Shown piece after piece: positions 37,081 through 39,336 of a DNA stretch of 64,000 nucleotides (position 1 is the first letter of the stretch; the number at the start of each line of letters is the position of its first letter). The stretch lies in NCBI GenBank assembly GCA_045606105.1, contig JAZURI010000003.1, forward strand, positions 167,124 through 231,123. Direction: 5' to 3'. The DNA is from Spirochaetia bacterium (GTDB taxonomy: Bacteria; Spirochaetota; Spirochaetia; CADAEX01). A program made the position numbers and the translations under genes. The notes below the pieces were generated by a model, which was not told the DNA's origin, made no database searches, and was given only the letters and a program-made list of their open reading frames with translations.

Positions 37081-38619
37081 ATGATTTGTTTCAGAAACCT
37101 GACAGAAACAGCAGCCTTCGGAGAGCTTGTCCGTTATCATGAAAAAAACGGAGGGAAACTGCTTCTTACGCCGGAGTCTGTGAAGAAATATATCGTTCCT
37201 GCGGGAAAAAACCTTTATTTCAGCTATGGGGCAAAGGGGGCAACACCTGAGCTTCTGGAAATTTTCTCCCGTCTTGCATCTGAACAGCAGTGTGTCGGAA
37301 AGTACAGGGAACTGCTGGGAGGAGCTGTATACAATCCCGTTGAAAACAGAATGGTTCTCCATCATCTATGCAGAGGCTCCGAAGGGCTTCCGCTGAGCGA
37401 AAAATCGGCCGGAAAGGGGAGGTTTTTCATGGAACAGGAGAAAAGATTCTGTGATTTTGCCGAAAGCATCCGTGCCGGAGGAAAAACCGATACTGTTATT
37501 CAGATCGGAATCGGAGGCTCGGGACAGGGACCAAAGGCTGTATACGAAGCCCTTAAATGCTGTGTTTCCGCCCGCGGTAGAGAGCCTCTCCCTGAGGCCC
37601 GTTTCATGGAAAACATAGATCGGGACGAGGTTCTGACCATACTGGAGGGAATCAATCCCGAAAGAACTCTTTTCATATTGGTAACCAAAAGCGGAACCAC
37701 ACAGGAAACAATAGATAATTATTTACTGACAAAAGAAATACTCGAACAAAGAAATCCGGGCTATGACATTTATGCTCATACGGTTGCGGTAACATGTCCC
37801 GGTACTCCTCTGGATGATACCAGGTTTTCCGGTGTCTTCTATATGGATGAATCCATAGGTGGTCGCTTCTCCGTATGCTCCGCCTGTGCCGGTCTTCTTG
37901 TTGCCGCAGTATTCGGAAGCGATGTTTACAGGGAGTTCTGTAAGGGAGCCCATTACAGCGATATCCTGGCTCTTGAGCCTGATGTCTGCAGGAATGCCCC
38001 GCTGCTTGATGCCCTGTTCAGCATATATGATATAAATGTCCGTAACATACCGGTGACTGCGGTTATTCCGTATTCTAATTTCCTTCTTGAATTTACCTAC
38101 CATCTGCAGCAGCTCCTTATGGAAAGCAACGGAAAGACGGCAGACAGGAAGGGGGGAGCCGTAGATTATGCAACATCTCCTGTTGTTATCGGTTCCATAG
38201 GAACAAACTGTCAGCACTCATTTTTCCAGCAGCTGCATCAGGGCTCAGGAGAGCTGCCGGTGGAATTTATCGGATTCAGGGAATCTCAGATAGATTCTGT
38301 TCCTCAGACAAAGCTGAATGCCAGCCTTGCGGCCCAGATTTCCTCCCTTGCTCTGGGACGGAGCAGCCGGGACATAAACAGACATTTTCCGGGAAAAAGA
38401 ACATCATCCCTGTTGTTCGGAAACCGGTTGACACCGGAGAATCTGGGTGCATTGTTTGCCCATTTTGAAAACAAGACCATGTTTCAGGGCTTTTTGTGGA
38501 ATATCAACTCCTTTGATCAGGAGGGGGTTCAGCTGGGTAAGGATCTGGCCCGTGAGGTTCTTTCCGATATTTCAGAAAAGGATTCCATTCTTTCGGCCTA
38601 TTATTCACTTCTTTCGTAA
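37081..38619 (+). CDS. pgi: Glucose-6-phosphate isomerase
   Basis: ENRMVLH, GIGGS, KSGTTQET, GGRFS, QQLLMESNGK, QHSFFQ.LHQG, NSFDQEGVQLGK. Confidence 0.95.
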   Translation: MICFRNLTETAAFGELVRYHEKNGGKLLLTPESVKKYIVPAGKNLYFSYGAKGATPELLEIFSRLASEQQCVGKYRELLGGAVYNPVENRMVLHHLCRGSEGLPLSEKSAGKGRFFMEQEKRFCDFAESIRAGGKTDTVIQIGIGGSGQGPKAVYEALKCCVSARGREPLPEARFMENIDRDEVLTILEGINPERTLFILVTKSGTTQETIDNYLLTKEILEQRNPGYDIYAHTVAVTCPGTPLDDTRFSGVFYMDESIGGRFSVCSACAGLLVAAVFGSDVYREFCKGAHYSDILALEPDVCRNAPLLDALFSIYDINVRNIPVTAVIPYSNFLLEFTYHLQQLLMESNGKTADRKGGAVDYATSPVVIGSIGTNCQHSFFQQLHQGSGELPVEFIGFRESQIDSVPQTKLNASLAAQISSLALGRSSRDINRHFPGKRTSSLLFGNRLTPENLGALFAHFENKTMFQGFLWNINSFDQEGVQLGKDLAREVLSDISEKDSILSAYYSLLS

Positions 38620-38646
38620 AAATTCCTTATAAGTACAAAAAAATAC

Positions 38647-38739
38647 AAAAAAAACCTGCCGGCTGCATGATGGGGATTGCCGGCAGGAAATGTACACAAT
38701 AAAAGGAGGTGTTATGAAAAGATAACTCACTCTTAATTC
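38647..38739 (-). ncRNA. Candidate sRNA B (about 90 nt) with anti-RBS/anti-start seed
   Basis: Lies between promoter motif 38743-38772 and the terminator CCTGCCGGC-15nt-GCCGGCAGG-U8. Contains UUUUCAUAACACCUCCUUUU. Ends are inferred. Confidence 0.55.
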
Positions 38740-38742
38740 ACT

Positions 38743-38772
38743 TGATAAACAACCCTGAAATGCAATAGTTAC
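38743..38772 (-). promoter_or_regulatory. ECF-sigma-like promoter motif, copy 2
   Basis: Minus strand GTAAC-TATTGCATTTCAGGGT-TGTTTATCA. Confidence 0.6.
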
Positions 38773-38806
38773 AAAAAAAATAAAAAAATTTTTAAAAAAA
38801 TTAAAG

Positions 38807-38842
38807 AAAAAAACCTGCCGGAAGGAGAGACCGGCAGGTTTT
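38807..38842. terminator. Bidirectional intrinsic terminator
   Basis: A7-CCTGCCGG-aaggagaga-CCGGCAGG-TTTTATTTT; could end both pgi (+) and minus-strand transcripts. Confidence 0.85.
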
Positions 38843-38885
38843 ATTTTCTTACGAATAACTTTTATATTGGCTGTTTTGTTTTCTC
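38807..38885 (-). ncRNA. Candidate sRNA A (about 80 nt)
   Basis: Lies between promoter motif 38889-38918 and the terminator CCTGCCGG-UCUCUCCUU-CCGGCAGG-U7. Ends are inferred. Confidence 0.5.
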
Positions 38886-38888
38886 GTA

Positions 38889-38918
38889 TGATAAACAGCT
38901 CCGGTATCGGATAGTTAC
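38889..38918 (-). promoter_or_regulatory. ECF-sigma-like promoter motif, copy 1
   Basis: Minus strand GTAAC-TATCCGATACCGGAGC-TGTTTATCA; the two boxes and the 16-nt spacing match copy 2. Confidence 0.6.
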
Positions 38919-38924
38919 AAAAAA

Positions 38925-39314
38925 TTATAATTTTAATTCATCACCGGGAAAAATCTCTCCCAGGGTTCTTTCCGTAAGGTTGAAATCCCTGTCAGAAACT
39001 ATTATTACAGTATCCGGGTTGCCGAATTCGCTTATTACCTGCCTGCAGGCTCCGCACGGATAAAGTATTCCCTGGTAGTCGGGTGAAAATACTGCCGCCG
39101 CCCTGATGCTCCTGACTCCTGCCAGAACAGCTGCAGCCACCGCATTCCTTTCGGCACATACAGTAAGGCCGAAGGAGGCATTTTCAATGTTTGCACCTGT
39201 ATATATCCTGTCGTCGTTTCCCAGCACCGCAGCACCTACCCTGAGACCGGAATAAGGGGCATAGGCCTTCAGTGCAGCCTCTACAGCCGCTTCAATCAAA
39301 ACTCTCTTGTCCAT
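38925..39314 (-). CDS. cdd: Cytidine deaminase
   Basis: AYAPYS, GANIENAS, CAERNA, PCGACRQ. RBS spacing favours ATG 39314. Confidence 0.96.
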   Translation of the reverse strand: MDKRVLIEAAVEAALKAYAPYSGLRVGAAVLGNDDRIYTGANIENASFGLTVCAERNAVAAAVLAGVRSIRAAAVFSPDYQGILYPCGACRQVISEFGNPDTVIIVSDRDFNLTERTLGEIFPGDELKL

Positions 39315-39336
39315 AATCATCTCCTTATAAACTCAA

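Follow-up and report, generated by a model that had tools for sequence, protein, structure and literature searches.

What is encoded in the 305-nt intergenic spacer that separates the convergent genes pgi (plus strand) and cdd (minus strand) in the genome of a Spirochaetia bacterium (GenBank assembly GCA_045606105.1)? This genome, designated G000 below, has 1,464,972 bp and 46% G+C and is 99% complete; the stretch that we analysed, here called the window, covers 64,000 nt of its contig 3 (positions 167124-231123), and all coordinates are those of the window unless contig 3 is named. The spacer carries two units on the minus strand that are built alike, each with an A/T-run and boxes of the form TGTAACTAT-N13-TGTTTATCA, after which come ~80-95 nt of body sequence that end in a hairpin with a U-run. 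An earlier note, made from the sequence alone, had taken them for a pair of small RNAs (sRNAs) driven by an extracytoplasmic function (ECF) sigma factor, and this reading largely holds: supported by the presence of the same promoter motif at the sigma gene and by the conservation of the units, they are probably sibling small-RNA genes driven by the single ECF sigma factor of this genome.

The tandem units, their boxes and the sigma gene

Unit 1, which lies next to cdd, has its box pair at 38889-38918, within a predicted promoter (38889-38924) composed of an A/T-rich run (38919-38924), a -35 element TGTAAC (GTAAC at 38914-38918), a 16-nt spacer and a -10 element TGTTTA (TGT at 38895-38897; TGTTTATCA at 38889-38897). 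Unit 2 repeats this layout (promoter 38743-38782, box pair 38743-38772): an A/T-rich run precedes TGTAAC (GTAAC at 38768-38772), and 16 nt separate this element from TGTTTA (TGT at 38749-38751; TGTTTATCA at 38743-38751). The two box pairs are spaced 146 nt apart, and every element of the shared architecture lies where the note had placed it. It was also correct that CUCCUU is present in both units: unit 1 has it in its hairpin loop, unit 2 in its body. Save for this word the bodies appear unrelated by eye, and the spacers are identical at 5 of 13 positions. The T-run that had been described upstream of the boxes is indeed present in unit 1, but since relatives have A-runs in its place it is not specific to T, and the element is better described as A/T-rich.

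By analogy with the sigma gene, we placed the RNA starts 8 nt after the T of the -10 GT. This gives starts near 38887 and 38741, within 2 nt of those guessed before (38885 and 38739), and predicted minus-strand RNAs of ~81 nt for unit 1 (38807-38887) and ~95 nt for unit 2 (38647-38741). The former ends in a hairpin CCUGCCGG/CCGGCAGG at 38814-38838 (CCTGCCGG-9-CCGGCAGG) followed by U7 (38807-38813), and the 9-nt loop of this hairpin, UCUCUCCUU (38822-38830), is a CU-rich candidate seed. The latter has a predicted 5' hairpin, a CAU-N4-CACCUCCUUUU that is predicted to be unpaired and a terminator hairpin at 38655-38687 (CCTGCCGG-17-CCGGCAGG), with an 8-bp stem and a loop containing UCCCC, that is followed by U8 (38647-38654). 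Both terminators thus have the features of intrinsic ones, i.e. 8-bp G+C-rich stems and a U7 or U8 tail, with pairing that is kept in evolution; a simple terminator scan missed them because their loops exceed its 8-nt limit. Compared with shuffled sequences, unit 1 folds at -21.6 kcal/mol with a z-score of -4.2, and unit 2 has a z-score of -3.35.

Many ECF promoters have AAC in the -35 element, a spacer of ~16-17 nt and a -10 element with GT, often CGT. Both units follow this layout: their -35 contains AAC, their -10 contains GT, and 16 nt lie in between. The -35 element of Bacillus subtilis SigX, given as TGTAAC in the part of PMC12153292 used here, is nearer to our boxes than is the motif of SigAb, another ECF sigma factor, to which we return below. 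On both strands of the whole genome the 30-nt box pattern has two copies, which are the two units, and the shorter form GTAAC-N16-TGTTTA has three, the third being located outside the window at contig 3 69658-69684. As the proposal of ECF control would have it, this third copy stands directly upstream of the only sigma gene of ECF size, with an anti-sigma gene behind. The note had also considered that the units could be copies of a dispersed repeat, such as a repetitive extragenic palindrome (REP) or a miniature inverted-repeat transposable element (MITE). This is ruled out, as there are two adjacent copies in the genome and the hairpin motif occurs at only those two loci.

The ECF sigma gene and its promoter (contig 3 69656-70216, outside the window) lie 136 kb from the units on the same contig, and the box pair (contig 3 69656-69685) directly precedes the 175-aa sigma gene. 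Its product has Sigma70_r2 and r4_2 domains and matches TIGR02937 at 85.4 bits (cut-off 42.9), although no named equivalog model is passed, and it is the one protein of ECF size among the four sigma-70-family hits above cut-off in the genome. The next gene overlaps it and encodes a zf-HC2 domain with HxxxCxxC, like ZAS anti-sigma factors; further downstream are genes for a 142-aa protein without family and for a TIG/transglutaminase protein. The -35 box of the self-promoter coincides with the last codons and the stop codon of cysS (AAA TGT AAC TAA), and the ATG of the sigma gene follows 8 nt after the -10 GT without a Shine-Dalgarno sequence. Autoregulation of this kind is a hallmark of ECF sigma factors.

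This arrangement is found well beyond G000. A sigma orthologue is present in 19 of the 20 genomes of the family, and WGTAAC-N16-KGTT stands directly before its start codon in 18 of the 19 loci, three of them without cysS upstream. In a wider set of 80 loci from more distant relatives, named as Spirochaetia metagenome-assembled genomes (MAGs), Treponema, Sphaerochaeta, Marispirochaeta and others, GTAAC-N15-17-NGT(T/C) immediately precedes the sigma start at 74, and at most of the 80 the start codon follows 7-10 nt after the -10 GT, again without a Shine-Dalgarno sequence. This geometry, together with the missing Shine-Dalgarno sequence, suggests that the sigma mRNA is leaderless or nearly so. 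The closest named relatives of the sigma gene come from rumen MAGs of ruminants. A paper on the reclassification of ECF sigma factors has spirochaete-specific ECF groups, and in the passages of it used here small RNAs are not mentioned (PMC7826278).

The RNA genes in genus, family and class

Within the genus, a unit follows directly after cdd in all nine genomes, with the unit 1 promoter kept, and the tandem pair is present in eight of them; in the ninth (G001) the second unit lies on another short contig. In the genus alignments it is the spacers and loops that vary, with boxes, CU-rich motifs and hairpin stems retained, and the stem of unit 1 has undergone a compensatory C-G to U-A change between two subclades (CCTGCTGG/CCAGCAGG). 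The earlier suggestion that selection acts on a promoter, rather than that a neutral duplication is seen, is borne out by this: boxes, CU-rich motifs and covarying terminators persist while the spacers drift, in tandem in eight genomes out of nine. The unit 2 promoter is kept in the genus and also in three other genera of the family, where a unit-2-like gene with a predicted 5' hairpin, CAUAAUACCUCCUUU and a terminator loop GGUUUUCCUCCUUUUUCC lies behind the same promoter; some of these carry additional, more divergent copies. Two members of a sister genus (G019 L151 92-272 and G018 L152 84-261) have an insertion of ~45 nt between the 5' hairpin and the CCUCC stretch, which in both cases is G+C-rich and, by eye, self-complementary.

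Across the class, the pattern GTAAC-N16-KGTT-N28-50-CCTCCTT was observed in 95 of 251 sampled genomes and 44 of 124 genera, compared with 11 matches in 10 genomes, by our own count, for the reversed control. The common form of the RNA has ~88-100 nt. It opens with a predicted 5' hairpin, in which CUUUUUUC faces a purine-rich arm; CAU(C/U)GACCUCCUUUU(A)GAUGUU follows, and after it a terminator of the form CCCCUCAGGG[UUUUG.ACCUCCUUUU]CCCUGAGGGG with a U-run. Each such molecule contains ACCUCCUUUU twice, once between the hairpins (CAU-N3-4-ACCUCCUUUU) and once in the terminator loop. This would be the ancestral form, which persists in the majority of spirochaete families.

We built a covariance model, R1, whose 25 sequences were drawn from five other families and, within this family, from three other genera; none came from this genus, and the terminator stem alone served as structure input. 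In G000 this model recovers unit 2 (38647-38782, 57.9 bits, E 3.8e-9) and unit 1 (38805-38928, 37.3 bits, E 5.5e-5), and it has no further match in the window or in the whole genome. Of 151 class genomes 88 have a match, which represent 52 of 88 genera; many of them have 2-4 copies, and among the positive genomes are complete single-contig ones, e.g. four of ~2.76 Mb, which suggests cultured organisms. No match was found in six genomes each of the families f3, f24 and f26 (those of f26 having 1-1.5 Mb). Tandem pairs of R1 matches were seen in two other families (G125:C8:21538-21847 and G035:C108:7425-7667), and it seems that tandem duplication of the RNA gene happened more than once.

On a 51-row model-guided alignment all 10 stem pairs of the terminator have changes on both sides, with 96.3% of the cells paired (66.8% in shuffles, no more than 63.8% when the partners are slid), and with a covariation score of 0.70 against 0.18, reached by none of 500 shuffles, bearing in mind that this alignment was fitted to the structure, which favours terminator pairing. 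Covariation in related genomes, to which the note had pointed as a check, is thus seen in every pair of this stem. An alignment of 17 sequences with MAFFT and RNAalifold had yielded only a 5-pair terminator fragment with misaligned arms, and was replaced by the model-guided one. The 5' hairpin is predicted in single folds.

Judged by these sequence comparisons, unit 2 is best regarded as the orthologue of the class-wide RNA and unit 1 as a genus-level sibling. Unit 1 lacks the central motif and keeps UCUCUCCUU in its terminator loop, whereas the loop of unit 2 has lost it and reads UCCCC, and it appears that the tandem duplication in this genus split the two ancestral ACCUCCUUUU sites between the copies. 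Within 38300-39300 all Rfam matches stay below the gathering score of their family (best match 30.2 bits, as against 60), nor is there a gathering-level match at six loci of other families. Searches of open-access papers and bioRxiv returned no description of an ECF sigma factor with small RNAs in Treponema or other spirochaetes, nor of the promoter word, which agrees with the note, whose author knew of none.

Candidate seeds, rival explanations and the linkage to pgi

The 3' end of the 16S rRNA of G000 reads GGAUCACCUCCUUUCU. The stretch CACCUCCUUU of unit 2 (38702-38711), which holds the CUCCUU of this unit and has CAU 4 nt upstream, is a 10-nt replica of it and is therefore complementary to Shine-Dalgarno sequences; the complement reads AAAGGAGGUGUUAUG, an idealised ribosome-binding site. 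ACCUCC is invariant in alignment A5, which covers other families. In the predicted folds the seed is unpaired or located in the terminator loop, and the stretch is largely unpaired in relatives and less cleanly so in G000.

From these features a mechanism may be proposed. The anti-sigma factor would release the sigma factor, which would then read TGTAAC-N16-TGTTT at its own near-leaderless operon and at the two RNA genes. Each RNA would start ~8 nt after the -10 GT, end at its strong hairpin and U-run, and expose a CU-rich copy of the 16S 3' end, located between the hairpins in unit 2 (CAU-N4-CACCUCCUUUU) and in the loop in unit 1 (UCUCUCCUU). These stretches would pair with the Shine-Dalgarno sequence of a target, in the case of unit 2 also with its AUG, and exclude ribosomes. 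That the RNAs mask ribosome-binding sites is, on balance, what we somewhat favour. Envelope stress as the inducing stress is suggested by analogy only, and by the same kind of analogy a thiol or oxidative signal would suit a ZAS-type anti-sigma factor equally well. A more sweeping possibility, to which we give little credence, is that the RNA is not a regulator of a few genes but a decoy of the 16S rRNA 3' end, of which each ancestral molecule shows two exact copies (ACCUCCUUUU), and that it competes with the 30S subunit for Shine-Dalgarno sequences. If this were true, the RNA would accumulate once the sigma factor is released, the competition would be at large, or at Shine-Dalgarno sequences closely followed by AUG AAA AA, as in many exported proteins, and the leaderless sigma/anti-sigma operon would escape it. 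The result would be a stress switch between Shine-Dalgarno-led and leaderless translation, which would have stayed next to pgi ever since the spirochaete families with this RNA diverged early on.

Several observations weigh against our reading of the units and of their mode of action. At the promoter, the -10 box is TGT or GGT and not CGT. A weight matrix made from 27 genus sites gives more than 14 bits to only the three sites in the genome, and a two-block matrix with 15-17-nt spacers scores them at 35.0, 32.4 (unit 2) and 28.6 bits (unit 1), with the next-best site at 20.0, but these results are partly circular, as the three G000 sites are among the 27 used for training. As regards the RNA, a 9-pair proposal for the 5' hairpin is only 61.6% paired in alignment A6, which was not structure-aligned there and includes unit-1-type rows. 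A sigma orthologue is present in 126 of the 151 class genomes: 85 have it together with the RNA, 41 have it alone, 22 have neither, and 3, with fragmented assemblies that are 87-92% complete, have the RNA alone. The co-occurrence itself speaks for our reading, the 41 sigma-bearing genomes without an R1 match do not fit easily, and, related genomes not being independent, the whole should be taken as a pattern and not as a test statistic.

The search for targets is likewise unfavourable. A duplex scan of 7,185 start regions of G000 gave no outlier, with the best energies of -27 to -24 kcal/mol forming a smooth tail. The top three hits with long frames begin with MKK(I/F)L, like exported proteins, a ranking that is biased because the seed complement itself contains ATGAAAAGA. 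Exact complementarity of at least 12 nt was no commoner in G000 than for reversed controls (25 vs 23 sites for unit 2, 30 vs 27 for unit 1), and a search through five genomes that belong to family f9 for sequences complementary to the conserved core, with at most one mismatch, led to the RNA genes alone. RNA-library data came from four runs, all as assembled Logan contigs without strand or transcript ends and in which DNA may be present. One of these, a metatranscriptome (from gut by its record), contains half of the sampled words of the stretch, and a 426-nt contig of it covers 38840-39265, i.e. cdd together with the promoter of unit 1 and its body as far as the hairpin. Another run, whose kind is not stated, covers 38816-39148, and no contig covers 38593-38815, unit 2 included, although such a gap proves nothing. 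A cdd 3' untranslated region, or DNA carried along in the library, would account equally well for the continuity between cdd and unit 1.

Three further observations concern the box pattern itself. Three of the next four matrix sites in G000 fall within long reading frames. An intergenic look-alike of the boxes, TTTTTTTGTCAC-N16-TTGTTTA (TGTCAC), is located at contig 3 68184-68217, 22 nt before the start of cysS, and scores 15.6 bits; it may represent a second, weak site, or else a sigma-70 promoter of the ordinary kind. In the 20 genomes of the family WGTAAC-type boxes, searched as WTGTAAC-N16-KGTTT, have 96 matches, against 16 for the reversed control, an enrichment that speaks for our reading; one recurrent match, TTGTAAC.TCTCAGGT..AAATGGTTT (L042, L060, L163 and others), lies inside a conserved coding gene that we take to be triose-phosphate-isomerase-like, with a downstream translation, by eye, of ...IAYEPVWAIGTG.... 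This match recurs because the coding sequence is conserved, and regulon counts based on the pattern alone thus call for caution.

One may consider instead that the hairpins are the ordinary terminators of cdd and pgi, and that the boxes are a transcription-factor site, or a chance or duplicated remnant, with no ECF promoter involved. The gene cdd (cytidine deaminase; 38925-39320, minus strand; Pfam dCMP_cyt_deam_1, 3.5e-19) is the same-strand upstream neighbour of unit 1, whose promoter starts 1 nt past the cdd stop codon (38925-38927). No terminator lies between this codon and the unit 1 hairpin, which is the sole terminator-like element after cdd; the two genes share one terminator, and the RNA of unit 1 doubles as the cdd 3' untranslated region. 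On the plus strand a T-rich stretch follows this hairpin, which may terminate transcription in both directions. A library contig that spans cdd to the hairpin and a distance of about two helical turns between the boxes, as in some operators, would fit such a reading too. The boxes are nevertheless not palindromic and have the ECF layout (AAC, a 16-nt spacer, GT). They remain the same in alignments in which spacers and bodies differ, they occur along with the sigma gene, and in 74 of 80 loci they stand at a fixed 7-10 nt before the ECF sigma start codon; we consider mere terminators very unlikely. Even harder to credit is that the units are leaderless mRNAs for small peptides. It is true that in all eight genus genomes with a unit 2 this unit has an ATG or GTG at a distance of 8 nt downstream of the -10 GT, just as at the sigma ATG, and that a 41-codon GTG frame is open in G000 (38605-38730, minus strand). 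The G000 frame that begins at the predicted 5' end, however, halts after two codons (GTG AAT TAA), a 1-nt deletion in the shared stretch of G006 shifts the frame, and the 5' end of the unit 1 RNA has no ATG, GTG or TTG. Furthermore, the frames cross the terminator hairpin and U-run, the loop lengths differ by numbers that are not multiples of three (hairpins of 36, 37 and 39 nt), and the 5' AUG or GUG pairs with the conserved CAU in the predicted 5' hairpin. The 41-codon frame, which extends across the terminator of unit 2 and enters sequence antisense to the 3' end of pgi, is most likely spurious. A small gene on the plus strand behind pgi, of which the "promoter" would be coding or 3' sequence, has against it that its frame has only three codons in G000 (ATG AAA AGA TAA), lacks the ATG in G005 (ATT) and has ~9, 13 or more than 20 unrelated codons, by eye, in other families, and that no such frame accompanies the box pair before the sigma gene. 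We give it almost no chance, even though, on the strand of pgi, nearly all members have a core complement that reads as a perfect ribosome-binding site (AAAGGAGGTGTTATG), a spacer and ATG AAA AA. In G000 this is seen at 38697-38720 (plus strand, AAAGGAGGTGTTATGAAAAGATAA), where a perfect ribosome-binding site with a three-codon frame stands opposite unit 2 as the mirror of its anti-Shine-Dalgarno and anti-AUG stretches, in a frame that relatives do not keep.

A different alternative accepts the RNAs and places their primary role in cis, on pgi, whose expression would be tuned under stress by convergent transcription or by pairing with a read-through pgi 3' end, the hairpins being shared terminators. 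In G000, pgi (glucose-6-phosphate isomerase; 37081-38619, plus strand; Pfam PGI, 1.6e-88) has its stop codon 28 nt from the end of the unit 2 U-run. Of 35 loci examined, 30 have the RNA gene and pgi tail to tail, with 8-334 nt between the RNA gene and the 3' end of pgi, and one further locus has a distance of 479 nt. The pgi-linked loci come from families f1, f7, f9, f30 and f31, their PGI proteins being 47-50% identical to that of G000, and the upstream neighbour of the RNA gene varies (pfk in f30 and f7, cdd in G000, others elsewhere). For a small-RNA gene this is unusually deep synteny, and it may reflect a shared terminator region, or else an antisense or interference effect on pgi. Convergence that is kept in at least four families despite such divergence of PGI and such varying upstream neighbours speaks for a role in cis, as does the lack of a T-run on the plus-strand side of the unit 2 hairpin, where pgi transcripts could enter the unit 2 antisense. 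Perfect antisense, however, needs no conserved sequence, yet ACCUCCUUUU is kept in two places across families, and conserved motifs of this kind imply that an effect on pgi is not the sole function of the RNA. The RNA terminators are moreover strong and stop before pgi, and four of the 35 loci have no pgi in the stretch examined, two of them covering ~1.5 kb beyond the RNA 3' end, while many genomes have additional copies elsewhere. In the pgi start regions of nine genomes no consistent pairing was found beyond the ordinary Shine-Dalgarno sequence (RNAduplex, with large loops allowed and crude energies). Thus, a primary role in cis appears unlikely; a cis role on pgi could exist alongside a trans-acting one.

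Known systems and biological meaning

ECF-sigma-driven small RNAs are central to enterobacterial envelope homeostasis, and the arrangement proposed here resembles that of the sigmaE sRNAs MicA, RybB and MicL, in that an autoregulated ECF sigma factor would drive short, terminator-ended RNAs as the repressing arm of its regulon. MicL lies in the 3' region of a protein gene and uses its terminator, and unit 1 is likewise located in the 3' region of a protein gene, cdd, and shares the terminator of that gene. Unlike MicA, RybB and MicL, to which they have no homology in sequence or structure, the RNAs described here belong to no Rfam family at gathering score, and their seeds are replicas of the 16S 3' end, whereas the seeds of MicA, RybB and MicL are located at the 5' end and are specific to porin mRNAs. 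Also in contrast to the sigmaE sRNA systems, the apparent regulon here comprises three promoters only. A closer parallel in this last respect is SigAb of Acinetobacter baumannii, a lineage-specific ECF sigma factor whose direct regulon, according to the part of PMC12153292 used here, comprises its own operon, one gene and the sRNA SabS; SabS is thought to mediate a large indirect SigAb regulon, and the same source describes the essential function of Escherichia coli RpoE as the transcription of three sRNAs of the sigmaE kind. Both systems thus have a very small direct regulon that includes the sigma operon itself and sRNA, although the SigAb promoter, as given there, is GTCAAC-N17-CGTT, and SabS is unrelated in sequence.

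In their architecture the RNAs are more reminiscent of the csRNAs of streptococci, which are under the control of CiaRH. As described in the sections of PMC3091779 used here, these are multicopy siblings of ~90-150 nt with two stem-loops, between which an anti-Shine-Dalgarno stretch and an anti-start CAU are unpaired in 53 of 61 csRNAs, and their promoters are the strongest in a regulon for cell integrity. Sibling RNAs are thus common to both, and so would be two stem-loops and an unpaired anti-Shine-Dalgarno stretch with CAU between them. The csRNAs differ, by the same account, in being controlled by a two-component response regulator and in belonging to another phylum; no csRNA model was among our Rfam matches to E 10, and the second anti-Shine-Dalgarno copy in the terminator loop and the linkage to pgi are specific to the family described here. 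Similar likenesses link it to LhrC1-5 of Listeria monocytogenes, which in the parts of PMC4132741 used here are multicopy, partly tandem and induced by envelope stress, and have redundant CU-rich sites that block translation of lapB, whose protein product is associated with the cell wall. The RNAs described here are also multicopy and partly tandem with redundant CU-rich sites, and one of the LhrC sites is indicated in the terminator loop, but LhrC, as described there, depends on the LisRK two-component system and has the motif UCCC rather than ACCUCCUUUU, and the two are not homologous.

The RNA family described here is so far undescribed and is present in more than half of the spirochaete genera sampled (52 of 88). 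It is not confined to one rumen genome, and cultured carriers would allow direct testing. If the regulon is as predicted, comprising the sigma operon itself and the two sRNAs, this stress pathway would act almost wholly at the post-transcriptional level. The deep linkage of a stress RNA to glycolytic genes (pgi and pfk) is an unexplained feature that is worth following up. In a phylum with poorly known RNA regulation, the family would offer a defined promoter, a defined RNA and the simple hypothesis that it masks ribosome-binding sites.

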